From Candidatus Tepidiaquacellales bacterium UBA2330 (GTDB lineage Bacteria; Bacteroidota; Ignavibacteria; Tepidaquicellales; Tepidaquicellaceae), in contig DDUU01000010.1 in NCBI GenBank assembly GCA_002344965.1, positions 3,773 to 67,772 of the forward strand: a DNA stretch of 64,000 bases, given 5' to 3'. The notes beneath the pieces were generated by a model. It saw nothing but the letters and a program-made list of their open reading frames with translations. It did no database searches and had not been told where the DNA came from. Both the position numbers and the translations under genes were made by a program. This document shows positions 6,936 through 21,835 of the stretch, piece after piece. How positions within the stretch are numbered: position 1 is the first letter of the stretch; every line of letters begins with the position of its first letter.

Positions 6936-6975
6936 ACTCCGTGAATAATTTTTTTACGGAGTTTTTTTTTATTTT
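6936..6975 (+). terminator. Rho-independent terminator-like hairpin after the hdeD-like gene
   Basis: ACTCCGT (6936-6942) pairs with ACGGAGT (6956-6962), followed by a long T-run. Confidence 0.6.
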
Positions 6976-7013: not shown

Positions 7014-7043
7014 TTGACAATAACAACTATAATGTTATATTTG
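7014..7043 (+). promoter_or_regulatory. Candidate promoter for the ATP-grasp/GNAT/aminomutase cluster
   Basis: TTGACA (7014-7019), a 16-nt spacer, then TATATTTG (7036-7043). This fits both a sigma70-like -35/-10 and the Bacteroidota-type TAnnTTTG -7 element. It lies about 30 nt upstream of the TTG start at 7075. Confidence 0.45.
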
Positions 7044-7074
7044 CAAAAATTATTTTTAATCAAATTAATATTTT

Positions 7075-8184
7075 TTGAGAATAGCATTAGCGTTCAACGT
7101 TAAAAAAGAAAACGAAAGTATACTTTCGGATTCAGATGAATCCTTAAAAATCTTATCCCCCAAAACTGACTTCAGAAAATATCTCAGTGAAAATCTGATC
7201 AACAATTATCCTGAAAGACTTGACGATACATACGCCGAATGGGATTCGGAAGAAACGATTACGGCTGTGAAATCGGCTCTGGAAGCGGACGGACACGATG
7301 TCACGCTTGTGGAAGGCGACAGCGATGCTTATGAAAAATTTAAATCGATACGACCGGAATTTGTTTTTAATGTTGCTGAAGGTCTGAACGGAGTGTCAAG
7401 AGAATCACAGATTCCTTCCATGCTTGAAATGCTGAATATTCCTTTTACCGGAAGCGATTCCGTTACGAACGGAATATGTCATGACAAATCGCGATGCAAA
7501 GAAATTTTATCCTATTACAATATTCTTAATTCAAAATTTTTTATTACCGATGCTATTCACAAAACCGAAAAGGATTTAACTTTTCCGAAATTTATTAAAC
7601 CGCTTCATGAAGGTTCATCAAAAGGAATATTCAATTCATCGGTTGTAAGAAACTGCGCAGAGTTAAGAAATGAAATATTAAGAATAAAGGATTGTTATGA
7701 CCAGCCATCACTTGTGGAAGATTTTCTCGAAGGAAAAGAATTTACGGTTGCTATGCTCGGAAACGGAAATGATGTTAAAGTTCTGCCGATTGTAGAAATT
7801 AATCTTGACTCCGTTCCTGAAGGGTTCAATAAAATTTATTCCTATGAAGTGAAATGGTTTTTTGATACAAGGGAAAGCAAACTGGATATATTCAGATGCC
7901 CCGCGGATATAGATGAAAAATTATACAGCAGAATCGAATCGGTCTGCAAAGCGGCGTATAAAGTATTAAGACTAAGAGACTGGGCTCGGATAGACGTCCG
8001 GCTTGACGGTGACGGTAATCCGAATATAGTAGAGATCAATCCTCTTCCGGGCATATTGCCGGACCCCGCGGATAATTCATGTTATCCTAAAGCAGCAAGA
8101 GAAGCCGGAATGGATTATAATACAATGATCAATGCAGTACTCGGAGCTGCGGTTAAAAGAATTAGAAACGGATTTAATTTATAA
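7075..8184 (+). CDS. D-alanine--D-alanine ligase-like ATP-grasp amidoligase (paralogue 1)
   Basis: 369 aa. It shows a Ddl-family layout (IPFTGSDS...DKSRCKEIL..., FIKPLHEGSSKGI, LVEDFLEGKEFTVAML, RIDVRLD..GNPNIVEINPLPG). TTG start. Confidence 0.75.
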   Translation: MRIALAFNVKKENESILSDSDESLKILSPKTDFRKYLSENLINNYPERLDDTYAEWDSEETITAVKSALEADGHDVTLVEGDSDAYEKFKSIRPEFVFNVAEGLNGVSRESQIPSMLEMLNIPFTGSDSVTNGICHDKSRCKEILSYYNILNSKFFITDAIHKTEKDLTFPKFIKPLHEGSSKGIFNSSVVRNCAELRNEILRIKDCYDQPSLVEDFLEGKEFTVAMLGNGNDVKVLPIVEINLDSVPEGFNKIYSYEVKWFFDTRESKLDIFRCPADIDEKLYSRIESVCKAAYKVLRLRDWARIDVRLDGDGNPNIVEINPLPGILPDPADNSCYPKAAREAGMDYNTMINAVLGAAVKRIRNGFNL

Positions 8185-8190
8185 TCAGAA

Positions 8191-9276
8191 ATGAAAATTA
8201 ATATAATTTATAACGATCCGACGCAGTATTCTACCGGCAGGATTTATGATGACGGTGTTACGGATATTGATAAGATAGAAGAGCCGATAGACATGAGCGA
8301 ATACGGAGTTCTCGATGAACTAAAGTCTGTTCAGCGGGCGCTCATACCTACAGGTCATCAGACCAAGATCACTGCGGTTGCGCTTGATGTTTATAAATTA
8401 ATAGATGAACTCAGAGATGACAGACCTGATATGATTTTTAATCTTTGCGAATCTCTTGACGGTGATCCTACTCAGGAAATGAATATTGCTGCATTGTTTG
8501 AGATTCTTAAAATACCATATACAGGATCGCGGGCACTTACACTGGGTCTTGCTCTGAATAAATGGCGGGTAAAGGAAATTCTTAATTATTATGAAATTCC
8601 TACTGCGCCTCATTATGTCTGCTCAAATTCCGGTGAGTTCAGAAATAACGGATATTCGAAACTGAAGGATAAATTTCCGCTGATAGTAAAACCTTCAAGA
8701 GAAGACGCAAGCATTGGAATAGAAAATAAGTCAGTAGTATATAATGACAGTGAGCTGAAGGAAAGAATAGAATTTATACTTGATGAACATAAACAGCCGG
8801 CGCTCGTGGAGCAGTATATAGACGGAAGGGAAATTAACGTAAGTGTAGTAGGTAATGTAAAAAAAGATGAAAGCGATCTGATAGTCTTTCCGGTATCGGA
8901 AATTGATTTCAGCAATATGCCTGATGATTATCAGAAGATAGTTAGTTATAACAGCAAATGGATGTATAAGACAGTAGAGTTTGCGGGAACTAAAGCGGTG
9001 TGTCCTGCAAAGAATATTTCCCCGGAGCTTGAAGAAAGAATAAAAGAGACTGCAAAGAAAGTTTACAGAATAATCGGAGCGTCTGATTATGCAAGAGTGG
9101 ATTTTAGGGTAAAGGATAATGTGCCGTATGTGCTTGAGATGAATCCTAACCCGGATATAGCTTCTGATGCGGATGAAGATACGGGATTTACAAGGAGCGG
9201 AAAGGCGTACGGGTGGAGTTATGAGGAGCTGATACAGAGGATAATCGGGTTTGCGTGTGAGAGGTGGGGGGTATGA
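8191..9276 (+). CDS. D-alanine--D-alanine ligase-like ATP-grasp amidoligase (paralogue 2)
   Basis: 361 aa with the same motif order as the upstream paralogue (IPYTGSRAL..NKWRVKEIL, IVKPSREDASIGI, LVEQYIDGREINVSVVG, RVDFRVKDNVPYVLEMNPNPD). It starts 7 nt after the preceding stop. Confidence 0.75.
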   Translation: MKINIIYNDPTQYSTGRIYDDGVTDIDKIEEPIDMSEYGVLDELKSVQRALIPTGHQTKITAVALDVYKLIDELRDDRPDMIFNLCESLDGDPTQEMNIAALFEILKIPYTGSRALTLGLALNKWRVKEILNYYEIPTAPHYVCSNSGEFRNNGYSKLKDKFPLIVKPSREDASIGIENKSVVYNDSELKERIEFILDEHKQPALVEQYIDGREINVSVVGNVKKDESDLIVFPVSEIDFSNMPDDYQKIVSYNSKWMYKTVEFAGTKAVCPAKNISPELEERIKETAKKVYRIIGASDYARVDFRVKDNVPYVLEMNPNPDIASDADEDTGFTRSGKAYGWSYEELIQRIIGFACERWGV

Positions 9277-9295
9277 CGGAATTGTATTCCGTCAT
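9270..9295. repeat. Palindromic 26-nt element, copy 1 (GGTATGACGGAATTGTATTCCGTCAT)
   Basis: A 10-bp perfect inverted repeat, ATGACGGAAT/ATTCCGTCAT, with a 3-nt loop. It overlaps the stop codon of the second ATP-grasp gene. A near-identical copy lies at 55310-55335. Confidence 0.7.
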
Positions 9296-9409
9296 GCGGT
9301 TTAAAGTAATGCCGCAGCTTAATTTTGCTGTGTATGAAGTTAGCATAAACCGCCACTTGCAGTTACATCGAATACAGAATTTGAATTTAAAAGTATTTAA
9401 TATTTAATT

Positions 9410-9877
9410 TTGATCAGAACTCTGATACAGGATGACAGGGAAAAGATCATTTGCATTCTTAAAGATACGCGGAATTTTTCTGATGACGAAATTGATATTG
9501 CAGTTGAACTTTTGGATGTTTATCTGAATAATCCGGTTCAGAAAGACTATGAAATTTTTGTTGATGAGGATGTTAATATCAGAGGTTATGTCTGCATTGG
9601 ACCAAGACCTCTTACGGAAGGGACATACGACCTTTACTGGATTGCAGTCAATCCTTCTGTTCAGTCTTCAGGAGTCGGAAGCGGATTGATAAATTTTATA
9701 GAGGGTCATATAAAAAATAAAAACGGAAGACTCGTACTTATTGAAACTAGCGGCAAAGAATCTTATGAAAAGGAAAGAAGATTTTATGAGAAAAATAATT
9801 ATAGGTTACTAGTTAATATAAAGGATTTTTATAAACCCGGAGATGATCTTATAGTTTACGGGAAATATCTTAATTAA
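9410..9877 (+). CDS. GNAT family N-acetyltransferase (possible beta-lysine acetyltransferase)
   Basis: 155 aa with the GNAT core (LYWIAVNPSVQSSGVGSGLINFIE...RFYEKNNY). The functional suggestion rests only on adjacency to the lysine 2,3-aminomutase gene. TTG start. Confidence 0.7.
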   Translation: MIRTLIQDDREKIICILKDTRNFSDDEIDIAVELLDVYLNNPVQKDYEIFVDEDVNIRGYVCIGPRPLTEGTYDLYWIAVNPSVQSSGVGSGLINFIEGHIKNKNGRLVLIETSGKESYEKERRFYEKNNYRLLVNIKDFYKPGDDLIVYGKYLN

Positions 9878-9992
9878 TTTTGTGATCAGATTTTTTCTGA
9901 TCTCAGCTGACAATAGATTTTTAAAATGAAGGTTAAACAATGCTTGTTTTTTTTATAAGCATGTTATCTTAAAAAACTAAAAAGGAGAAATA

Positions 9993-11150
9993 ATGGAACT
10001 CTGGCAGGAAATGATCAGAAACAGCGTCAGCTCTGTAGATCATCTTGTTGAGAAATTCAGCATTGAAAGAGAAACAGCGGAAAAGCTCGATGAATTTTTT
10101 CAGGCGAGGATAAATCCGTATTACCTTTCTTTAATCAGATATCCCGGCGATCCCATATGGCTTCAGTGTGTACCTGATATTGCGGAACTTGAAGATATTG
10201 ATTCAGAAGAAGATCCGCTTAATGAAGACGACATGAGCCCGGTTCCCAATATTACTCACAGATATCCTGACAGAGCTTTGTTTCTTGTTACTTCACAATG
10301 CGGACTTTACTGCAGATTCTGTACCAGAAAAAGAAAAGTCGGAGATCAGAGTAAAATATCTATGAGAACTCTGGAGTCTGCTTTTCAGTATCTGGAATCA
10401 CACCCGGAGATCAGTGATGTAATTTTATCCGGAGGAGATCCGCTAATGCTTACTGATAATATGCTGGAAAAAATAATTTTCAGACTGAGACAGATAAAAC
10501 ACATTCAGATTATAAGGCTTGGTACTAAAATGCCCTGTGTACTCCCGCACAGGATTACTCCGCAACTGTGTGAAATGCTAAAAAAATATCATCCGATTTA
10601 TGTTAATACGCATTTTAATCATCCGTGGGAACTGACAGATGAAAGCAAGAGAGCATGCGCAATGCTCGTAGATTCAGGTATCCCTGTAGGTAATCAGTGT
10701 GTTTTGATGAAAGGCGTAAATGATAATGCAGATGTCATGAAAGATCTTATGAAAGGTTTACTTGCAATGAGAGTCAGACCTTATTATATTTATCAGGCGG
10801 ATCTGACCAAAGGAGCTAACCATTTCAGAACTCCTCTTAAAACCGGTCTTGAGATAATGGATAAATTAAGAGGTCATATCTCCGGTCTTGCCGTTCCGCA
10901 TTTTGTCGTTGATGCGCCGGGAGGCGGCGGAAAAATTCCGTTACTTCCGGATTATGTGATCTCTAAAGATGATGAAAAAATTGTTCTGCGAAATTTCAAA
11001 TATAACATTTATGAATATCCTGAAATAGACGGTGATGCCAATTCAAACAATGCTGACCTTTTTATGCGAAGGAAAAAAATCCGCAGGAGATCAGTCAGCA
11101 AGAAGGATAAGATAAGAAAAATTAATATACCCGTACTGAATAATTCCTGA
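9993..11150 (+). CDS. kamA: Lysine 2,3-aminomutase (KamA/AblA family radical SAM, PLP-dependent)
   Basis: It has the CGLYCRFCTRKR radical-SAM cluster motif followed by Arg, plus SGGDPL, HFNHP, GNQCVLMKGVND, YYIYQADL and VVDAPGGGGK (PLP lysine). A strong SD (AAAAGGAG) precedes the ATG. Confidence 0.9.
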   Translation: MELWQEMIRNSVSSVDHLVEKFSIERETAEKLDEFFQARINPYYLSLIRYPGDPIWLQCVPDIAELEDIDSEEDPLNEDDMSPVPNITHRYPDRALFLVTSQCGLYCRFCTRKRKVGDQSKISMRTLESAFQYLESHPEISDVILSGGDPLMLTDNMLEKIIFRLRQIKHIQIIRLGTKMPCVLPHRITPQLCEMLKKYHPIYVNTHFNHPWELTDESKRACAMLVDSGIPVGNQCVLMKGVNDNADVMKDLMKGLLAMRVRPYYIYQADLTKGANHFRTPLKTGLEIMDKLRGHISGLAVPHFVVDAPGGGGKIPLLPDYVISKDDEKIVLRNFKYNIYEYPEIDGDANSNNADLFMRRKKIRRRSVSKKDKIRKINIPVLNNS

Positions 11151-11172
11151 ACTTAAAAGAGTTCTCATACAA

Positions 11173-11206
11173 AAACCCGGCTCTCTGAGTCCGGGTTTTT
11201 TTTTTA
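11173..11206 (+). terminator. Rho-independent terminator after kamA
   Basis: ACCCGG...CCGGGT hairpin (about 11175-11196) followed by T10. Confidence 0.75.
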
Positions 11207-12598: not shown

Positions 12599-12661
12599 TC
12601 ACTGTTTGATTTTAAAATTTGATTTTTGCAATTTGTCTGTATTAATAAAAGGTATAATCCA

Positions 12662-13309
12662 ATGATTCTGTCTGATTCTGAGATAATAAAAAAAATTAAC
12701 GAAGGAGACACTGCTTCATTCAGGATCATAGTAGATGAATTAAAGGACAAAGCATTATCTTTAACCATGAAAATTCTGAAAAACAGGGAAGATGCCGAAG
12801 ATTGTCTGCAGGAATCATTCCTTAAACTCTTCAGGTCCATTTCATCTGGTAAGTTTGAAGAGAGATCAAAACTGTCAACATATTTTTACACAATAGTTTA
12901 TAATACAGCAGTGGATAATTATAAAAAATTAAAATCACGAAGATTCAGTATAGTTTCTATAGATGTCGAAGGATCAAGTTTTGAAGAAGGCGATGATCTG
13001 CTGCGAAAGTATTATGATGCAAAAATTGAGAAAAGTGAGTTTGATGATAAGTATGACCTGAGCACTGAAAGTAAAATATCAGAGTCCGAAATAAAGCAGA
13101 TCATTAGTGACTATATTAATTCTATTCCGGAACAGTATTCAGTCATTTTAACAATGTTCTATATTAATGATCTTTCTCATGACGATATTGCCGGAATACT
13201 TAAGCTACCGCTCGGAACTGTCAAAAACAGAATTTTCCGCGCAAAGAGTAAATTAAAAGAAATCATTTTAAAAAAATTTTCCGAAGAGGAAATTCTTCAG
13301 TATGTATGA
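12662..13309 (+). CDS. ECF-type RNA polymerase sigma-70 family factor
   Basis: Region 2 reads EDAEDCLQESFLKLF...YFYTIVYNTAVDNYKK. Region 4 HTH reads LSHDDIAGILKLPLGTVKNRIFRAKSKLK. An unusually long acidic linker separates regions 2 and 4. Confidence 0.8.
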   Translation: MILSDSEIIKKINEGDTASFRIIVDELKDKALSLTMKILKNREDAEDCLQESFLKLFRSISSGKFEERSKLSTYFYTIVYNTAVDNYKKLKSRRFSIVSIDVEGSSFEEGDDLLRKYYDAKIEKSEFDDKYDLSTESKISESEIKQIISDYINSIPEQYSVILTMFYINDLSHDDIAGILKLPLGTVKNRIFRAKSKLKEIILKKFSEEEILQYV

Positions 13310-13788
13310 AAAAATTTAGTTTTACTATTAAAAATTTTTACAGTATTTTTAACACGATGCCGGACGGTAATAATAAAAATATTGATTCTTATCTCGATGA
13401 TAACATAAGACAGTCTCTGAAGTCAAAAACTTCTGATGATTTTTCTTTTGAAATGATGAAACGGGTCGAGATTGAAAAAGAGTTTGCCAGGCAGGACAGA
13501 AAAACAGACAATGTTGCAAAGTTTGTTATCGGCAGTTTGCTTGCCGCTATGATAATATTATCTGTAGGTATTCCGCTTCTTTTCGGAGTTTCGGATACAG
13601 ACCAAAGTCCCGGCTTTTTCAGTATGCTGACGGATAATCTTACAGACGCTATTGAATATTTCAGTATTATTACGGCTGAAAATCTTGGAATAGCATTTAA
13701 CTTAAAAACATTGTCCGTTATTATTGTTTCATCTGTCTTTATTTTTCTTTTTTCAAAAGCTGACAAGCTGTTATTGAAAAAGTTTTAA
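13306..13788 (+). CDS. Putative anti-sigma factor/membrane protein
   Basis: Its start overlaps the sigma gene stop (ATGA). It is 160 aa with a central and a C-terminal transmembrane helix. The call rests on position only. Confidence 0.45.
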   Translation: MKKFSFTIKNFYSIFNTMPDGNNKNIDSYLDDNIRQSLKSKTSDDFSFEMMKRVEIEKEFARQDRKTDNVAKFVIGSLLAAMIILSVGIPLLFGVSDTDQSPGFFSMLTDNLTDAIEYFSIITAENLGIAFNLKTLSVIIVSSVFIFLFSKADKLLLKKF

Positions 13789-14896: not shown

Positions 14897-15511
14897 TTGA
14901 TAAACCAATATTCTTACTTTTTAAAATTGAGAAACCGATCTGTCTTATTCATAAAAAACATGGTAAGTCTCAGATGCATAAGTGATTTAGAGAATATTCT
15001 GAGTAATCTGGAAAGCGTTAAGGTTCTGAATATATCACTTGGTAAAGCTGAGATTTTTTATGATGAGGAAAAGATCTCCGCAGAGGAAATCTCAGCCGAA
15101 CTTTCCAGAAATAACTTTCAGATCATCAGCGACAGAAATATTCAGTTAGTGGAACAAATTAAGAACGCCTGTATTGAATTGATCTATTTCGGCAATAATA
15201 CCAACTCGCTGATCAGAAATTCCGAATATCTGAGTGAAAGATTAAATTTACAGTATTCCTATATCAGTAAATTCTTTTCTGAAAATACCAATACTACACT
15301 TGAAAAATTTTTAATAAAAGTTAAAATAGAAAAAGTAAAAGAGCTGTTAAGTTATAATGAAATGACATTAAGTGAAATTGCATATATGATGGGATACAGC
15401 AGTGTTCAGTATCTAAGTAATCAGTTCAGACAAATAACCGGAGTTTCTGTTACCGAGTACAGGCACGGCGCAGATATAAAAAGAATACCTCTTGAAAATC
15501 TTCTGCTGTAA
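14897..15511 (+). CDS. AraC/XylS-family transcriptional regulator with N-terminal degenerate HMA-like domain
   Basis: The C-terminal AraC HTH reads TLSEIAYMMGYSSVQYLSNQFRQITGVSVTEYR. The N-terminus resembles a ferredoxin-fold HMA domain, but the MxCxxC metal site reads NMVSLRC. TTG start, with an alternative ATG at 14960. Confidence 0.7.
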   Translation: MINQYSYFLKLRNRSVLFIKNMVSLRCISDLENILSNLESVKVLNISLGKAEIFYDEEKISAEEISAELSRNNFQIISDRNIQLVEQIKNACIELIYFGNNTNSLIRNSEYLSERLNLQYSYISKFFSENTNTTLEKFLIKVKIEKVKELLSYNEMTLSEIAYMMGYSSVQYLSNQFRQITGVSVTEYRHGADIKRIPLENLLL

Positions 15512-15603
15512 ATTACCTACCGCTGTAATCTTATAACAAATTGTATTTAAACTGTAACAATTTATTTCTTCATGTTTTATAGTTTTGTATAACAATTATA
15601 AAT

Positions 15604-15858
15604 ATGAAAATAAAAAATAATATAGCAATAAGTGATTCGGGTTTTATTTTTAATCCGGCTACAGGTGATTCATTTTCTGCAAATCCTGTCGGTCAGAAGA
15701 TTTTTAAAATGCTTCAGACCTCAGCAACCGAAGAAGAGATAACAGCTGATATTCTCGAAACTTATCAGATTGACAAAGTTCATTTTGAAAAGGATTTTTA
15801 TGATTTTATTAATGTACTGAAAAAGTACAAACTCCTGGAGGAAATTGAAAAAGACTGA
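15604..15858 (+). CDS. PqqD-family protein (RRE-type peptide chaperone-like)
   Basis: 84 aa. The pattern GFIFNPATGDSFSANPVGQKIFKMLQTSATEEEITADILETYQIDKVHFEKDFYDFINVLKKYKLLE matches the PqqD/RRE consensus. It has an acidic C-terminus, EEIEKD. Confidence 0.7.
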   Translation: MKIKNNIAISDSGFIFNPATGDSFSANPVGQKIFKMLQTSATEEEITADILETYQIDKVHFEKDFYDFINVLKKYKLLEEIEKD

Positions 15859-16894
15859 TATCACAATTGCAGTTACCGGTCTTAACGCAATTGACAGTCC
15901 GGGACCCGGTATCTCAGTAATCAGAGCAATAAGGAAAAGCAATTTTTATAATCCGCGCATTATAGGTCTTTCATATGATACAATGGAACCCGGCATTTAT
16001 ATGCATGACCTGGTTGATAAATCTTATCAAATCCCGTTTCCTTCTGTCGGAACAGATAATCTTCTTTTCAGATTAAAGGAAATTAATGACAAGGAAAAAA
16101 TTGATGTTATAATACCAAACTTTGACGCCGAACTGTTCAATTTCATAAAATTGGAAAAAAGACTTCTGGAACAATGTAATATAAGAATGTTCCTTCCTTC
16201 AATGAAACAGTTTGAAGAAAGACAGAAAGCAAACCTTTATGAATTCGGGAAAAAATATAATCTGAAAGTTCCTAAGAATAAAACAATATATTCTCTGAAT
16301 GATATTAATAAAATAGAATATGAATTTTCATTTCCCGTTGTAGTTAAAGGAAAATACTATGATGCTAAAGTAGCTTATAATAAAGATCAGATCGCGGAAC
16401 ATTTTAACAGAATAAGCATCAAGTGGGGACTTCCGATAATAATTCAGGAATATGTTTTCGGTTCGGAAGTTAATGTCACTGCAATAGGCGACGGGACGGG
16501 AAAAACTATCGGGGCTGTACCGATGAGAAAACAGTATATAACCGATAAAGGAAAAGCATGGTCAGGAATTTCACTCGATGATGATAAACTCTTAAAAATT
16601 ACATCAGATCTAATCAAGTCAACTAAATGGAAAGGATCAATGGAACTTGAATTTATCAAGACTTCAAATGATGAATATTTTTTACTTGAAATAAATCCCC
16701 GGTTTCCGGCATGGGTTTATCTTGCTGTCGGCTGCGGTCAGAATCATCCGGATGCGCTGCTTAAAATGGCTCTGGGAAAAAAAGTAAACGCTTTCCCAAA
16801 ACATGAAACGGGAAAAATGTTCATAAGGTATTCCTATGATATGATTATAAATTTAAAAGAATTTGAAAAAATCTCAACTTCAGGAGAATTATAA
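15845..16894 (+). CDS. ATP-grasp domain ligase (carboxylate-amine ligase type)
   Basis: 349 aa with FPVVVKGKYYDA, IIIQEYVFGSEVNVTAIGD and ELEFIKTSNDEYFLLEINPRFPAW motifs. It overlaps the PqqD-like gene by 14 nt. Confidence 0.75.
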   Translation: MKKTDITIAVTGLNAIDSPGPGISVIRAIRKSNFYNPRIIGLSYDTMEPGIYMHDLVDKSYQIPFPSVGTDNLLFRLKEINDKEKIDVIIPNFDAELFNFIKLEKRLLEQCNIRMFLPSMKQFEERQKANLYEFGKKYNLKVPKNKTIYSLNDINKIEYEFSFPVVVKGKYYDAKVAYNKDQIAEHFNRISIKWGLPIIIQEYVFGSEVNVTAIGDGTGKTIGAVPMRKQYITDKGKAWSGISLDDDKLLKITSDLIKSTKWKGSMELEFIKTSNDEYFLLEINPRFPAWVYLAVGCGQNHPDALLKMALGKKVNAFPKHETGKMFIRYSYDMIINLKEFEKISTSGEL

Positions 16895-18277
16895 ATGAAA
16901 AAACAGCAGTATGAAAGACCTGTTTTACAGTTACTGAATTCAGGCACTATGAACAAATACGGGACAAAGACTGAGTATGCGCCTTTTACGCATATTGACG
17001 GCGCAAGCATTCAAGATCTTACGGATAAATTCGGTTCCCCCCTTTTTGTAGTTTCCGAAAAAAAAATCAGATCAAATTTTAAGGATGCAAACCGTTCATT
17101 TAAAACACGGTATCCGAAAGTACAGTTTGCCTGGTCATACAAAACAAATTATCTGAATGCGGTATGCAATGTATTTCATCAGGAAGGCTCATGGGCGGAA
17201 GTAGTTTCCGGATTTGAATACAGTAAAGCGCTTAATAACGGCGTACCCGGAAGTAAGATTATTTTCAACGGACCGGATAAAACTGATGAAGATCTTCGCA
17301 CTGCAATTATGAATAATTCTCCGATTCATATTGATCATCTGGACGAACTGTACATGCTGCAGGAAATTTCCGAAGAGACCGGCATAAGACCAAAAGTCGC
17401 TATCAGAGTGAATATGGATACCGGCATTTATCCGATGTGGGACAGATTCGGATTTAATTATGAAAACGGTCAGGCATGGGATGCAATTAATAAAATCATG
17501 CTGAATGATAAACTTGATCTGGTCGGATTGCACTGCCATATCGGCACTTTTATGCTTGCTCCGAATGCATATTCAATTGCTGCAGCAAAACTTTCTGATC
17601 TTGCTTTAAACATAAAGTATAAATACAAAAGGAATATTCAGTATATCGATATGGGCGGCGGTTTCCCGTCGAAGAATACTCTGAAAGGTTCTTACCTTCT
17701 TGGCATAGACACTGTCCCGACTATAGATCAGTTTGCTGAGGCAATTTGCTCATCAATTCTAAACGCAGGATTTCTGGAGGAAGAGCTTCCGCTGCTTATT
17801 CTAGAAACAGGAAGAGCGCTGATTGATGACGCCGGATATCTTATAGGAAGCGTGATCTCAAACAAAAGATTATCAGACGGAAGAAGAGCTGTCATTATGG
17901 ACTTCGGTGTGAATATAATGTTTACCTCATTTTGGTATGATCATAAGATCACGCCGGCTCAGGAGTTCAGTGATTTTACTGAAGACATGGTGCTTTACGG
18001 ACCGCTTTGTATGAATATAGATGTAATCAGAGAGCATGTAACTCTGCCGCTGCTTAAAAGAAATGATAAAGTCGTTGTCCATACTGTCGGCGCATATAAT
18101 ATGACACAATGGATGCAGTTCATTTCATTAAGACCGGCTGTTGTCATGATTGATAAGAAAGGTGTACCTCATGAAATCAGAAAACGCGAATCAATAAATT
18201 CAATTGAATCTGAAGAAATAGTACCTGAATATTTAAAGACATTCAGTTTAAACGGAATTGAAAAAAGAACAGGCTAA
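16895..18277 (+). CDS. Orn/DAP/Arg decarboxylase family-2 PLP-dependent decarboxylase (LysA/BtrK-like)
   Basis: 460 aa. It has a PLP-lysine context (FAWSYKTNYL), a glycine loop (IDMGGGFPS) and an active-site Cys context (YGPLCMNIDVI). Its start abuts the ATP-grasp stop. Confidence 0.8.
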   Translation: MKKQQYERPVLQLLNSGTMNKYGTKTEYAPFTHIDGASIQDLTDKFGSPLFVVSEKKIRSNFKDANRSFKTRYPKVQFAWSYKTNYLNAVCNVFHQEGSWAEVVSGFEYSKALNNGVPGSKIIFNGPDKTDEDLRTAIMNNSPIHIDHLDELYMLQEISEETGIRPKVAIRVNMDTGIYPMWDRFGFNYENGQAWDAINKIMLNDKLDLVGLHCHIGTFMLAPNAYSIAAAKLSDLALNIKYKYKRNIQYIDMGGGFPSKNTLKGSYLLGIDTVPTIDQFAEAICSSILNAGFLEEELPLLILETGRALIDDAGYLIGSVISNKRLSDGRRAVIMDFGVNIMFTSFWYDHKITPAQEFSDFTEDMVLYGPLCMNIDVIREHVTLPLLKRNDKVVVHTVGAYNMTQWMQFISLRPAVVMIDKKGVPHEIRKRESINSIESEEIVPEYLKTFSLNGIEKRTG

Positions 18278-20459
18278 GGAATATTTATATTTCTATTTTG
18301 AAGGCATAATTAACAGTTACTCACGTGTTTTCTTTTCTAAAAGTAAAATCTTTGCTTTCATTATTATTGTTGCAACGTTTATCAATCCCGCATCGGGTCT
18401 AAGCGGGCTGATAAGTCTTGCCGCTACGCTTTTATTTGCTGTATGGTTTGGTTATGACAAAATTTTTATAAGGGACGGTTATTACGGATTCAATTCGCTT
18501 CTGACAGGTTTAGCGCTTGGCGTTTACTATGAATTCTCTCCGGCATTCATTTTTGTTCTTTTGTTTGCATCAATGCTGACTCTATTGATAACAGTCTGGC
18601 TTGCCGTATTCCTCGGTTACTATAACATCCCTTTTCTTACAATGCCGTTTCTTCTCAGCACATGGATTTCAATTCTTAGTATCAGAACATTTAAGGCAAT
18701 TGAATTAAGCGAACGCGGAATTTATGTCTTCAATGAAGTTCAGAATTTCGGCGGAGTTTATCTTTTGAAATTCTATGATCAGATCATTAGTCTGAATATT
18801 CCGTTTGTCATCGACGCATATCTCAAATCACTCGGGGCTATTTTTTTTCAGTATAATATTTTTGCAGGTTTTATAATTGCAGCAGGAATTCTTTATTATT
18901 CCAGGATTGCATTTTCTCTTTCACTTGTCGGATTTTTCTCCGGTTACTTTTTTTATTTTTTTCAGAAAGCTGAATTCTCGGATGTGTATTACAGCTATAT
19001 CGGATTTAATTTCATCCTGACCGCTGTTGCGCTCGGAGGATTTTTCTTTGTTCCGTCCGGAAAAACTTTTTTACTTGTTATAATTGCAAGCCCCCTCGTT
19101 GCCGTTATACTCAGCGCATTCAGCTATATATTCAATATTATACAGCTTCCGATTTATTCTCTTCCTTTTTCTCTTATTGTAATTCTCTTTATTTTTGCCA
19201 TGAGCAGCAGGTTAACTCCCAAAGGAATTAACTATGTTACAAATCAGCAGAACTCCCCAGAGAATAATTTATACAAATATGCAAACAGGATTGAGAGATT
19301 TCAAAGGGATACTTATTATCATTTCCAGCTTCCGTTTTACGGAAAATGGTTTGTATCGCAGGGCATTAACGGAAAGATCACTCACATGGAAGACTGGAAA
19401 TATGCATGGGATTTTGTAGTGAAAGATGAATCCGGCAGGACTTTTAACAATACGGGAACATCGCTGAATGATTTTTACTGTTTCAATCTTCCCGTATTAG
19501 CATCTGCTGCAGGTTATGTTTCGGAAGTCGTAAATGATGTTGAAGATAATGAGATTGGCGGAGTTAATATTTCTGAGAACTGGGGAAATACTGTTGTAAT
19601 TAAACACGATAATTTCCTTTACAGTAAAGTTTCACATCTCAGGAAAAACAGTATCAGATTAAAGAAAGGTGATTATGTGAAAAAAGGTGACATTCTGGGA
19701 CACTGCGGAAATTCAGGCAGATCTCCGGAGCCGCATCTGCATTTTCAAATTCAGTCCAGTGATCTTATTGACGGTAAGACAATTAAATATCCTTTCTGTT
19801 ATTACCTTTTGGAAAAAGACAATGAAAATCTTTTCAGGTCTTTCGATTACCCGGAAGAGGGTGAAACGGTTATGAAAGTTCAAAGCACAAATCTTATAAG
19901 GGAATCTTTCAGATTTTCTCCCGGCACAGTTATGAATTTTGAATCTGAAAATGAAAAAGGAGAAAAGCAAAAAGTAAAATGGGAAGTATTCGTAGATGCT
20001 TATAACTATCCTTATATTTACTGTTACAATTCAAAATCATTCGCATATTTTATAAACAATGAAACGCTTCATTACTTTACTGACTTTACAGGAGACAGAA
20101 AATCACTATTGTATTATTTTTATTTGGCAGCGAATAAAATACTTCTCGGATATTATGATAATATGGAAATCAAAGACAAACTTCCTCTTTCAGGCATTTA
20201 TTCCGGTCCGTTAAAAATACTGCAGGATTTTATAGCTCCGTTTTATATTTTTCTGAAAGCGGATTATTCTTTTTCATTTAAATATATTGATAATGAATTA
20301 AACCCTTCTGAGATCGTAATTTCCTCACAGGCAGTTACCGGATTCGGTAAAACCATAAACAGAAAATTAGACTTTGAATTAACTTTAATTAATAACAATT
20401 TAAAAAAAATATTAATATCAGACGGCAAAAAAAACATATCGGCGGAATACATTTCCTGA
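18258..20459 (+). CDS. Fusion protein: urea-transporter (UT) family membrane domain + M23 (LytM-type) metallopeptidase domain + uncharacterised C-terminal domain
   Basis: The N-terminal roughly 330 aa are polytopic, with UT-like signatures (INSYSRVFFSKSKIF..., DGYYGFNSLLTGLALG). The central M23 domain reads WKYAWDF...GYVSEV...GNTVVIKHD...GDILGHCGNSGRSPEPHLHFQI. TTG start overlaps the decarboxylase gene by 20 nt. Confidence 0.7.
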   Translation: MKKEQAKEYLYFYFEGIINSYSRVFFSKSKIFAFIIIVATFINPASGLSGLISLAATLLFAVWFGYDKIFIRDGYYGFNSLLTGLALGVYYEFSPAFIFVLLFASMLTLLITVWLAVFLGYYNIPFLTMPFLLSTWISILSIRTFKAIELSERGIYVFNEVQNFGGVYLLKFYDQIISLNIPFVIDAYLKSLGAIFFQYNIFAGFIIAAGILYYSRIAFSLSLVGFFSGYFFYFFQKAEFSDVYYSYIGFNFILTAVALGGFFFVPSGKTFLLVIIASPLVAVILSAFSYIFNIIQLPIYSLPFSLIVILFIFAMSSRLTPKGINYVTNQQNSPENNLYKYANRIERFQRDTYYHFQLPFYGKWFVSQGINGKITHMEDWKYAWDFVVKDESGRTFNNTGTSLNDFYCFNLPVLASAAGYVSEVVNDVEDNEIGGVNISENWGNTVVIKHDNFLYSKVSHLRKNSIRLKKGDYVKKGDILGHCGNSGRSPEPHLHFQIQSSDLIDGKTIKYPFCYYLLEKDNENLFRSFDYPEEGETVMKVQSTNLIRESFRFSPGTVMNFESENEKGEKQKVKWEVFVDAYNYPYIYCYNSKSFAYFINNETLHYFTDFTGDRKSLLYYFYLAANKILLGYYDNMEIKDKLPLSGIYSGPLKILQDFIAPFYIFLKADYSFSFKYIDNELNPSEIVISSQAVTGFGKTINRKLDFELTLINNNLKKILISDGKKNISAEYIS

Positions 20460-20467
20460 TCATTATT

Positions 20468-21835
20468 TTGTTTATGATTTCCTTTTCTGAAGTCAGATCT
20501 CAGAGCGATTCAGCTTTGAATAACGCTGAAAAGATTTCTTATGATCTTTTCAGCAAAGGAAAATGGAACGAGCTTATCTCGTTTTCAGAAAACGCATTAA
20601 AGAAAAATATTGATTTTATTTTTCTGGGAGTCAGACTTGGTATCGCATATTATGAAACGGAGAAATACTTTGATGCAATTGTCCATTTAAAAAAAGCTTT
20701 TGACCTCGGATATGAAACTCCTTCTGCAATTGAATATCTGTATTACTCATATCTTCAGGCTGGCAGACAGGAAGATGCTGATTTTTATTTTTACCGGCTT
20801 CCTAAAAATAAAAGAGACAGAATAAAGCCGCAGGATAATTCATTTATGAATAAATTTTATGCAGACGGAGGGTTCGGATTCAGCAATGATAAAAGTAAAA
20901 ATGAAAACACTGATATTGACGGGAGCGATAATATATACGGAGAGCAGCTTATTAACAAAAACTATTTTTTTATCAGCCTGGGTTTTAAGCAGCTTCCTCT
21001 GAGATGGCTGAATTTAACATATAACTATAATTATCTGGATCTGAAAAAAGCAAAGGTAATAAAATATAATGATGTCAGTATCACTGATGACTACAAGCAG
21101 CAGCAGCAGCAGTTCTATCTTAAATTTGATATCAGAGCGGGAGACGGTTTTGTTATAAGTCCATCAGGTCATTATGTCTTTGTAAAGGATAAAACCATTT
21201 ATGCGGATTATGACAGCGCGACTTTCAGCTATAATGCGCAGACTATGAGTTATGATTCATTGAAATATTATTACAGCATACTTCAAAGAGAAAATATTCA
21301 GGATGATTACGTAATTTCCCTCTCGCTGTCCAAACAGTTTTATATTTACAAAACAGCTCTGCACGGCAGTTACTCGTTTCTTAACGGAAGCAATCAGACT
21401 CAGCTCGGAGCAAATATGACTTTTTATCCGAAAAAGAAAAATACTCTTTATACATTTTCAGATATAACTCTTCACAGTCAGAATGATGTAACGAATTTAA
21501 TTTTCTTTCAGTCAGCAGGCGGCAAACTTTATAAAGATCTGTGGGGTGAAGTCTTTGCGGCTTTCGGCAGAATGAATAATTACAATGAGCAGAACGGTGC
21601 GCTTGTATTTAATAATCCGGATGTGACCGTTTTTAAATTCGGCGCAGAGTTTAATTATTATTTCAGTAAAAATATTTCAGCATCGCTTGTGTACGTTAAT
21701 CAGCAGAGAGAAAAAAAGTATCTGACATATTCGTTATCAGGATTCAGTAACAATCTTCCTGTTACTTATCCTGAATTAGTTGATCTTAAATATTCAGTTA
21801 ATACAATCCTCGGAGGTTTTAAAATTTATTTTTAA
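20468..21835 (+). CDS. TPR-like N-terminal domain + predicted outer-membrane beta-barrel protein
   Basis: 455 aa with TPR-like helices at the N-terminus. The second half has alternating aromatic beta-strand patterning, and the protein ends in ...ILGGFKIYF with a terminal Phe. The N-terminus is uncertain because the signal-peptide h-region lies in-frame upstream of the first canonical start. Confidence 0.55.
   Translation: MFMISFSEVRSQSDSALNNAEKISYDLFSKGKWNELISFSENALKKNIDFIFLGVRLGIAYYETEKYFDAIVHLKKAFDLGYETPSAIEYLYYSYLQAGRQEDADFYFYRLPKNKRDRIKPQDNSFMNKFYADGGFGFSNDKSKNENTDIDGSDNIYGEQLINKNYFFISLGFKQLPLRWLNLTYNYNYLDLKKAKVIKYNDVSITDDYKQQQQQFYLKFDIRAGDGFVISPSGHYVFVKDKTIYADYDSATFSYNAQTMSYDSLKYYYSILQRENIQDDYVISLSLSKQFYIYKTALHGSYSFLNGSNQTQLGANMTFYPKKKNTLYTFSDITLHSQNDVTNLIFFQSAGGKLYKDLWGEVFAAFGRMNNYNEQNGALVFNNPDVTVFKFGAEFNYYFSKNISASLVYVNQQREKKYLTYSLSGFSNNLPVTYPELVDLKYSVNTILGGFKIYF

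Follow-up and report, generated by a model that had tools for sequence, protein, structure and literature searches.

We examined a four-gene operon on a 64,000-nucleotide (nt) stretch of contig DDUU01000010.1 (here called the window) from "Candidatus Tepidiaquacellales bacterium UBA2330," a member of the class Ignavibacteria with a 3.4-Mb genome of 35.8% G+C. The closest protein matches are all labelled Ignavibacteria, and the DNA sequencing runs in which the organism occurs are bioreactor sludge and wastewater metagenomes; a search for its RNA runs found none. Between positions 7014 and 11206, the list of open reading frames (ORFs) contains exactly four, all on the + strand, in the order AG1-AG2-GNAT-KamA. 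AG1 and AG2 are ATP-grasp ligases related to D-alanine–D-alanine ligase (Ddl), GNAT is a small acetyltransferase, and KamA is a lysine 2,3-aminomutase of the radical S-adenosylmethionine (SAM) type that uses pyridoxal phosphate (PLP). The features of the locus are as follows.

6936-6970, +: predicted intrinsic terminator of the upstream DUF308 gene (10-bp stem, then a T-run)
7014-7043, +: predicted operon promoter (−35 TTGACA, 16-nt spacer, TG extension, −10/−7 element TATATTTG)
7075-8184, +: AG1, predicted Ddl-fold ATP-grasp ligase (369 amino acids [aa], TTG start)
8191-9276, +: AG2, second predicted Ddl-fold ATP-grasp ligase and AG1 paralogue (361 aa)
9277-9409, +: AG2-GNAT spacer with hairpins but no sign of conserved function
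9410-9877, +: predicted small GNAT acetyltransferase, non-AblB type (155 aa, TTG start)
9878-9992, +: GNAT-KamA spacer with weak AT-rich hairpins, judged by fold statistics
9993-11150, +: predicted KamA-family radical-SAM/PLP lysine 2,3-aminomutase (385 aa)
11173-11206, +: predicted intrinsic terminator ending the operon (AAAAACCCGG...CCGGGTTTTTTTTTT hairpin)

An earlier note on this DNA, made from the letters and ORF translations alone, had placed four co-directional genes between one candidate promoter at 7014 to 7043 and one strong terminator at 11173 to 11206, and the ORF list, the promoter scan, and the fold statistics all agree with that layout. The top site of the region in the promoter scan was TTGACA-16-TATATT at 7014 to 7041, with 11 of 12 matches and a TG extension. 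Comparison with relatives footprints this candidate: the block TTGACA...TATAATGTTATATTTG is invariant among their aligned upstream regions, and the flanking intergenic DNA diverges. The core AATGTTATATTTG, which is the extended −10/−7 element, is conserved across the class. Among the 74 relatives with enough upstream sequence, 68 have the core AATGTTATATT upstream of AG1 and 40 have the 16-mer in its exact form; the conserved core usually begins ∼47 nt ahead of the start codon. AG1 itself has a TTG start codon embedded in a run of T residues (TTTTTTG), both in the window and in the majority of relatives; a few relatives have ATG instead.

The exact promoter 16-mer occurs once in the 3.4-Mb genome, and other genomic sites of the form TTGAC(A/T)-N16-17-TAnnTTTG stand upstream of plausible genes. 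This pattern looks like the main promoter type of the organism, of which the operon appears to carry a near-consensus extended version. We rejected a regulon defined by the 16-mer, since genome sites with one or two mismatches look like chance, as well as a palindromic operator (ATAACA-N7-TGTTAT) in the promoter spacer, which was seen in six close relatives and is limited to the nearest ones. At the other end, the terminator hairpin has a folding energy of −17 kcal/mol (z = −3.68), and none of 200 shuffled sequences was equally stable. We found no internal terminator-like T-tracts within the operon, and the terminator of the DUF308 gene would isolate it from upstream transcription. Based on the single conserved promoter and the single terminator, we conclude that the four genes are predicted to form one transcription unit.

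The gene set is a stable unit within the class. The order AG1-AG2-GNAT-KamA was found in all 66 Ignavibacteria loci long enough to hold the four genes. The earlier note had named co-occurrence across genomes as a check and had raised the case of ATP-grasp genes not syntenic with kamA in relatives; at these 66 loci they are syntenic throughout. In an even sample of 301 genomes from the phylum, AG2 homologues (E ≤ 1e−30) were detected in 64 and KamA (E ≤ 1e−50) in 106. All 52 sampled class genomes with a KamA at least 64% identical encode it no more than 2 kb from AG2. In 44 other genomes of the phylum, KamA is more divergent (≤54% identity) and AG2 is absent, and in one family of another class all cassette genes are present but dispersed. 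These patterns indicate that within the class the cassette is, by all appearances, single copy, vertically inherited, and nearly universal.

KamA is the sole KamA-family gene of the genome. It passed only one model, that of the general KamA family (TIGR00238; 307.4 bits against a cut-off of 199.2). Its best specific model was the AblA equivalog TIGR03820, at 464.6 bits under a cut-off of 525.4. It scored below the cut-offs of the glutamate-, arginine-, and EpmB-type models, all of which ranked behind AblA, with 417.8 bits on the glutamate 2,3-aminomutase model TIGR04368 (cut-off, 650) and 238.2 bits on the EpmB model (cut-off, 369.3). The protein aligned over 365 residues with the Clostridium subterminale enzyme (PDB 2a5h; E = 6.9e−121). 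In this alignment, C103, C107, and C110 of the CxxxCxxC cluster motif correspond to C125, C129, and C132, R112 corresponds to R134, which contacts the alpha-carboxylate, and K314 corresponds to the PLP lysine K337. The two residues that contact the epsilon-ammonium group, D293 and D330, correspond to D270 (in YIYQADL) and D307 (in VVDAPGGGGK). The cluster motif, the PLP lysine in GGGGK, and both acidic residues had been picked out from the letters before any alignment was made, together with the suggestion of lysine over glutamate as the substrate, and each of these assignments is borne out by the alignment and model scores. Every cassette-linked KamA extracted from other lineages retains the cysteines, the arginine, the aspartates, and the PLP lysine; the few that differ do so solely in the glycine run before the PLP lysine. 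Since both lysine-binding aspartates are kept and the model scores agree, assignment of this KamA as a predicted lysine-type 2,3-aminomutase, and not EpmB or a glutamate aminomutase (Eam), is strongly supported.

The 155-aa protein is predicted to be a minimal GNAT acetyltransferase that is not of the AblB type. It matched the Pfam families Acetyltransf_7 (38.2 bits; gathering threshold, 27) and Acetyltransf_1 (31.5 bits; gathering threshold, 20.7). The comparison with AblB, also proposed in the earlier note, gave no match of the operon protein to TIGR03827 and no AblB in the whole genome at E ≤ 0.01. Its closest solved relative, aligned over residues 8 to 150 (E = 4e−31), is PDB 2r7h, titled "putative D-alanine N-acetyltransferase of GNAT family," a name that is putative only. 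We found no paper on this structure in the searched literature; the best-matching locus for 2r7h is 53% identical.

The two ligases are 34 to 35% identical paralogues, both with a Dala_Dala_lig_C domain (128.7 bits in AG1 and 106.2 bits in AG2). On the best Ddl model, NF002378, they reached 172.5 and 135.2 bits, respectively, against a cut-off of 243, and other Ddl/Van models scored lower. The solved structures closest in sequence to AG1 and AG2 are Ddl. With the AG1 profile, the closest PDB entries were again Ddl, followed by the L-amino-acid ligase BL00235, and there were no PylC chains among the 60 best matches. The AlphaFold2 model of AG1 (predicted local distance difference test [pLDDT], 88.7) had DdlB structures as its best Foldseek matches (template modeling score normalized to the target [TMt], 0.81 to 0.85), and that of AG2 (pLDDT, 91.3) had Ddl structures (TMt, 0.83 to 0.90). 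Both predicted structures superpose on Ddl over all three domains (TM score, 0.81 to 0.90). The initial description of two paralogous Ddl-like amidoligases therefore stands, with the addition that neither protein reaches the Ddl cut-offs.

The active-site residues point to working enzymes. The reference catalytic residues of DdlB, which serve ATP, Mg, and the acyl-phosphate, are K215, R255, D257, E270, and N272. In AG1 the equivalents of K215, R255, D257, and N272 are K260, R305, D307, and N322; all four are among the residues invariant in 31 AG1 sequences from many phyla, along with E55, D57, E102, R109, E110, and S335, and E320 is nearly invariant. The AG2 equivalents (K256, R302, D304, E316, and N318) are invariant within the AG2 family. 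The equivalent of Ddl Glu15 is also kept in the ligases. Of the substrate-site residues of Ddl, His63 is replaced by Glu (the invariant E102 in AG1) and Tyr216 by Trp. AG1 also has a conserved inserted loop, PDPxxNS, ahead of the equivalent of Ser281, which is the invariant Ser335. A canonical Ddl with the GGxSxEREVS motif is encoded on another contig (C6). Because the catalytic residues are intact, the Ddl cut-offs are missed, and a canonical Ddl is encoded elsewhere, AG1 and AG2 are predicted to be catalytically intact amide ligases with new specificities and not cell-wall enzymes. The acidic N-domain residues E55, D57, E102, and E110 suggest that AG1 may activate the carboxylate of beta-lysine, and the invariant Ser335 hints at an acceptor that itself bears a carboxylate.

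In a maximum-likelihood tree, AG1 proteins from both of the gene orders described below fall together in a single clade (support, 96/91) that excludes AG2-like proteins. This split implies an old duplication and two ligases that cannot replace each other. Many genomes of the class, six of which we recorded individually, encode a further full-length AG2-like gene (38 to 43% identity) far from the single KamA.

Beyond the class, at least ten further lineages of bacteria and archaea have the gene set (the taxonomic labels of some of the cassette-bearing bins are doubtful). AG1 relatives comprise 919 clusters at 50% identity (E ≤ 1e−30). The order seen in the window is also found in Kapabacteria, Melioribacteraceae, and bins labelled Deltaproteobacteria. 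A second order, KamA-AG1-AG2-GNAT, occurs in Ilyobacter (Fusobacteriota; twice), Bacillota, Bacteroidales, Spirochaetales, Desulfobacteraceae and Desulfovibrionaceae (Desulfobacterota), Myxococcota, and Pirellulales (Planctomycetota). Archaeal versions were found in Thermoplasmatota, Woesearchaeota, and Nanoarchaeia (the last within DPANN), and Patescibacteria-type genomes have three of the genes only. Carriers include genomes of 0.8 to 1.5 Mb.

Gene fusions divide the cassette into two parts. KamA is fused to AG1 in two protein clusters and in a Thermoplasmatota locus (L094). AG2 is fused to GNAT in six loci, again including L094, from Desulfobacterota, Myxococcota, Planctomycetota, and Thermoplasmatota; the GNAT part in Thermoplasmatota is of another GNAT subfamily. 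Fusions of AG1 to AG2 make up 16 clusters. One Nitrospinota genome has the cassette split, with KamA next to AG1 on one contig and AG2 with GNAT on a second. The fusions and this split locus imply two modules, KamA+AG1 and AG2+GNAT.

Some lineages add or lack genes. In two genomes of 0.8 to 1.0 Mb (L129, 7872 to 10898; L131, 7953 to 11000), a divergent Ddl-like ligase of a third type accompanies AG1 and a short KamA of 311 to 312 aa, for which the best model is AblA_like_2. This variant has no GNAT and lies beside the gene for MnmA (tRNA modification) or RuvA. Two Nanoarchaeia-type bins (L123, 2867 to 9588; L118, 2799 to 8972) carry two extra genes between AG2 and KamA, one encoding a protein of 441 to 444 aa with a weak MurL-like match (E = 1.8e−9) and the other a LysA/FslC-like PLP decarboxylase of 456 to 460 aa, and a PEBP-family gene follows KamA. 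In a Bacteroidales bin (L141, 1208 to 7375), a 595-aa protein that joins a weakly matching GNAT to a histone deacetylase (HDAC)-type deacetylase is encoded between KamA and AG1, and the cassette ends with an AsnC/Lrp regulator; the deacetylase fusion suggests that acetylation may be reversible in that lineage. The cassette of another bin includes a SpeG-like GNAT. These accessory genes would fit amine-rich intermediates but vary by lineage. In a check for anticorrelation with spermidine synthesis, NspC was absent from the whole class, from genomes with and without the cassette.

The operon shares logic with AblA/AblB, PylB/PylC, EpmB/EpmA, Ddl, and Ngg but departs from each in a defining feature. 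Like AblA/AblB (YodO/YodP), it encodes a KamA-family lysine 2,3-aminomutase beside an N-acetyltransferase, which in AblB depends on acetyl coenzyme A; that pathway has no need for two ATP-grasp ligases, which are integral to the operon here. In pyrrolysine synthesis, the radical-SAM enzyme PylB rearranges lysine, and the ATP-grasp ligase PylC activates the carboxylate of the product and couples it to another lysine at the epsilon-amine. The operon would share this logic of an aminomutase followed by an ATP-grasp ligase. PylB, however, is neither a KamA-family protein nor a PLP enzyme, and the pathway includes PylD, for which we saw no counterpart beside the cassette. In EpmB/EpmA, a KamA-family aminomutase likewise feeds beta-lysine to a dedicated ligase that makes a beta-lysyl amide, as we suppose for the operon by analogy. 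EpmA is a paralogue of lysyl-tRNA synthetase, whereas the ligase here is of the ATP-grasp type, and the second ligase and the GNAT are additional here.

With Ddl/Van, AG1 and AG2 have in common the three-domain fold, the catalytic residues, and the Glu15 equivalent. They differ in having Glu and Trp in place of His63 and Tyr216, in the PDPxxNS loop of AG1, and in having homologues in archaea that lack murein. The Ngg/AsnO system of Sinorhizobium and Pseudomonas offers a further parallel, in that fused GNAT and ATP-grasp ligase domains make N-acetylglutaminylglutamine amide, an N-acetylated dipeptide solute. That system has no aminomutase, no beta-amino acid, and one ligase, and its amidotransferase partner is absent from the operon. 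We found no description of the four-gene set in the searchable full-text literature, in keeping with the earlier note, whose author knew of no characterised pathway with these genes.

Based on the above, we conclude that the operon probably makes an acetylated amide small molecule based on beta-lysine, similar to a beta-lysyl di- or tripeptide, which is cytoplasmic and has a general physiological role. KamA would convert L-lysine to beta-lysine, a step strongly supported by the sequence. The fusions and gene linkage suggest that AG1 would then take beta-lysine from KamA, phosphorylate its carboxylate, and join it to an amine acceptor. Judged by analogy to PylC and EpmA, the probable acceptor is an amino group carried by an amino acid or a diamine, such as the N-epsilon of lysine. 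AG2 would form a second amide bond, and the GNAT, to which it is fused or linked, would N-acetylate one free amino group. The end product would be an N-acetylated molecule resembling a beta-lysyl di- or tripeptide, or the free amine in lineages without a GNAT. We regard it as most likely a small molecule of the cytoplasm that has a general role, for example, as a solute or an organic cation. In our reading, it is neither an antibiotic nor murein, nor is it just N-epsilon-acetyl-beta-lysine.

Several points weigh against this pathway. The identity of the acceptors, which of AG1 and AG2 acts first, and the position of the acetyl group are inferences. The cassettes of Woesearchaeota and of Candidate Phyla Radiation (CPR)-like genomes have no GNAT, which places acetylation outside the core. 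Carriers with genomes of 0.8 to 1.5 Mb would suit an essential modification of a macromolecule at least as well as a free metabolite. Finally, the lineage-specific accessories, namely, the PLP decarboxylase of Nanoarchaeia and the HDAC-type deacetylase of Bacteroidales, mean that the product may differ among lineages.

A bolder version of the proposal, which we think unlikely but worth stating, is that the cassette makes a new class of organic polycation in bacteria and archaea, a polyamine-like housekeeping molecule in which AG1 forms, in free form, an N-epsilon-beta-lysyl linkage like that on elongation factor P (EF-P). As acceptor, AG1 would then use a side-chain amine, that of lysine or ornithine, of a diamine, or of a further beta-lysine. 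Extension of the product would fall to AG2, and the GNAT would adjust the charge, helped in some lineages by the HDAC-type deacetylase or the decarboxylase. Such a housekeeping role, if true, would account for retention of the cassette in CPR-like and DPANN genomes of 0.8 to 1.5 Mb.

We give a rather low probability to the explanation that the system instead modifies a macromolecule, in which case AG1 and AG2 would place beta-lysine and another group on a protein or an envelope polymer, and the GNAT would cap the new amine. Possible targets would be an EF-P-like translation factor, a ribosomal protein, or an envelope polymer. There is precedent for a beta-lysyl amide on a protein lysine in EpmB/EpmA and EF-P, the core cassette is retained in 0.8- to 1.5-Mb genomes that have few biosynthetic pathways, and its single-copy, vertical, near-universal distribution in the class is like that of housekeeping functions. 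The ligases, however, are nearest to Ddl and then to an L-amino-acid ligase, which are small-molecule enzymes, unlike the protein ligases of the RimK, TTL, and LysX types. In the loci we examined, the cassette has no recurring neighbor that could be a target gene. Bacteria and archaea also differ in EF-P/aIF5A modification and in their envelopes, and Thermoplasmatota and DPANN have no murein. In addition, the genome encodes no EpmA above the model cut-off: the best genX match (199 bits against 287) was to a 521-aa frame, the size of an aminoacyl-tRNA synthetase.

It is very unlikely that the operon is merely the known osmolyte pathway, which makes N-epsilon-acetyl-beta-lysine, despite the ablA-ablB pattern of KamA beside an acetyltransferase and the rank of AblA as the best specific model for KamA. 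Green sulfur bacteria, which are relatives of Ignavibacteria, are cited in PMC9337991 as accumulating acetyl-beta-lysine. Against this role, KamA falls under the AblA cut-off, neither the GNAT nor any other protein of the genome matches AblB, and cassettes without a GNAT exist. In addition, a normal Ddl is encoded elsewhere in the genome, AG1 and AG2 are fused to KamA and the GNAT in other lineages, and the ligases are present in archaea without murein. The absence of AblB and the fusions uphold the suggestion in the earlier note that this set reaches beyond the acetyl-beta-lysine pathway. A catabolic cassette, with KamA as the entry to fermentation or degradation of lysine and the remaining genes acting on intermediates, strikes us as extremely improbable. 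KamA does start clostridial lysine fermentation, and many genomes of the phylum have KamA without the ligases, but the ligase-less KamA proteins are the more distant group with ≤54% identity. Two ATP-consuming ligases would make no sense in an energy-yielding fermentation, and no genes for a beta-lysine 5,6-aminomutase, dehydrogenase, cleavage enzyme, or coenzyme A transferase flank the operon.

The set is retained in nearly the whole class and also in about ten other bacterial and several archaeal lineages, which points to a widely made metabolite. Identifying the product would add a new branch to beta-lysine biochemistry, so far limited to an osmolyte, EF-P modification, and a few antibiotics. 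It would also give functions to two large families misannotated as "D-alanine--D-alanine ligase" and explain the orphan structural-genomics structure 2r7h.

The two internal spacers had been noted earlier as containing stable hairpins that might allow attenuation or processing. The hairpins exist, but their folds barely beat those of shuffled sequences, leaving attenuation or processing unsupported. For 9277 to 9409, z = −1.29, and 20 of 200 shuffles were as stable; for 9878 to 9992, z = −2.0. Neither spacer matched an Rfam family, and no T-tracts follow the hairpins. Among relatives, the lengths of the internal spacers range from ∼9 nt to >500 nt, and that of the GNAT-KamA spacer alone from ∼25 nt to >500 nt; in four relatives it is 300 to 520 nt, versus 115 nt in the window. 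We ruled out attenuators and riboswitches in these spacers based on the lack of Rfam matches, the weak z-scores, and the lack of length conservation.

The neighbors of the operon include genes for DUF308 and DUF6249 proteins and a sigma factor of the extracytoplasmic function (ECF) type. The sigma-70 gene (regions 2 and 4) extends into the beginning of a gene for a 160-aa membrane protein, which could be its anti-sigma factor. This pair (12626 to 13788) lies 1.5 kb downstream of the operon, and we saw no link between the two.

A second cluster concerned with amide bonds lies 4 kb downstream of the operon (14897 to 21835), led by an AraC-type regulator (14897 to 15511). An ATP-grasp ligase with PylC-like and "Ter"-type matches (15845 to 16894) is followed directly by a PLP decarboxylase (16895 to 18277), then by a fusion of a urea transporter with an M23 peptidase (18258 to 20459) and a 455-aa protein without a family match. 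We considered the ligase-decarboxylase pair (15845 to 18277) as a part of the system and rejected it: its orthologues occur in 26 of the 301 genomes, on other contigs or at a distance from the cassette. The decarboxylase is merely 26% identical to that of the Nanoarchaeia cassettes, and the 455-aa neighbor is unrelated to the 441-aa Nanoarchaeial protein. The best match of the decarboxylase was the N-citrylornithine decarboxylase FslC, and it scored below the LysA cut-off; no other gene in the genome belongs to PF02784, and hence we found no normal LysA. The best matches of the decarboxylase, at 72% identity, are in other classes of the phylum.

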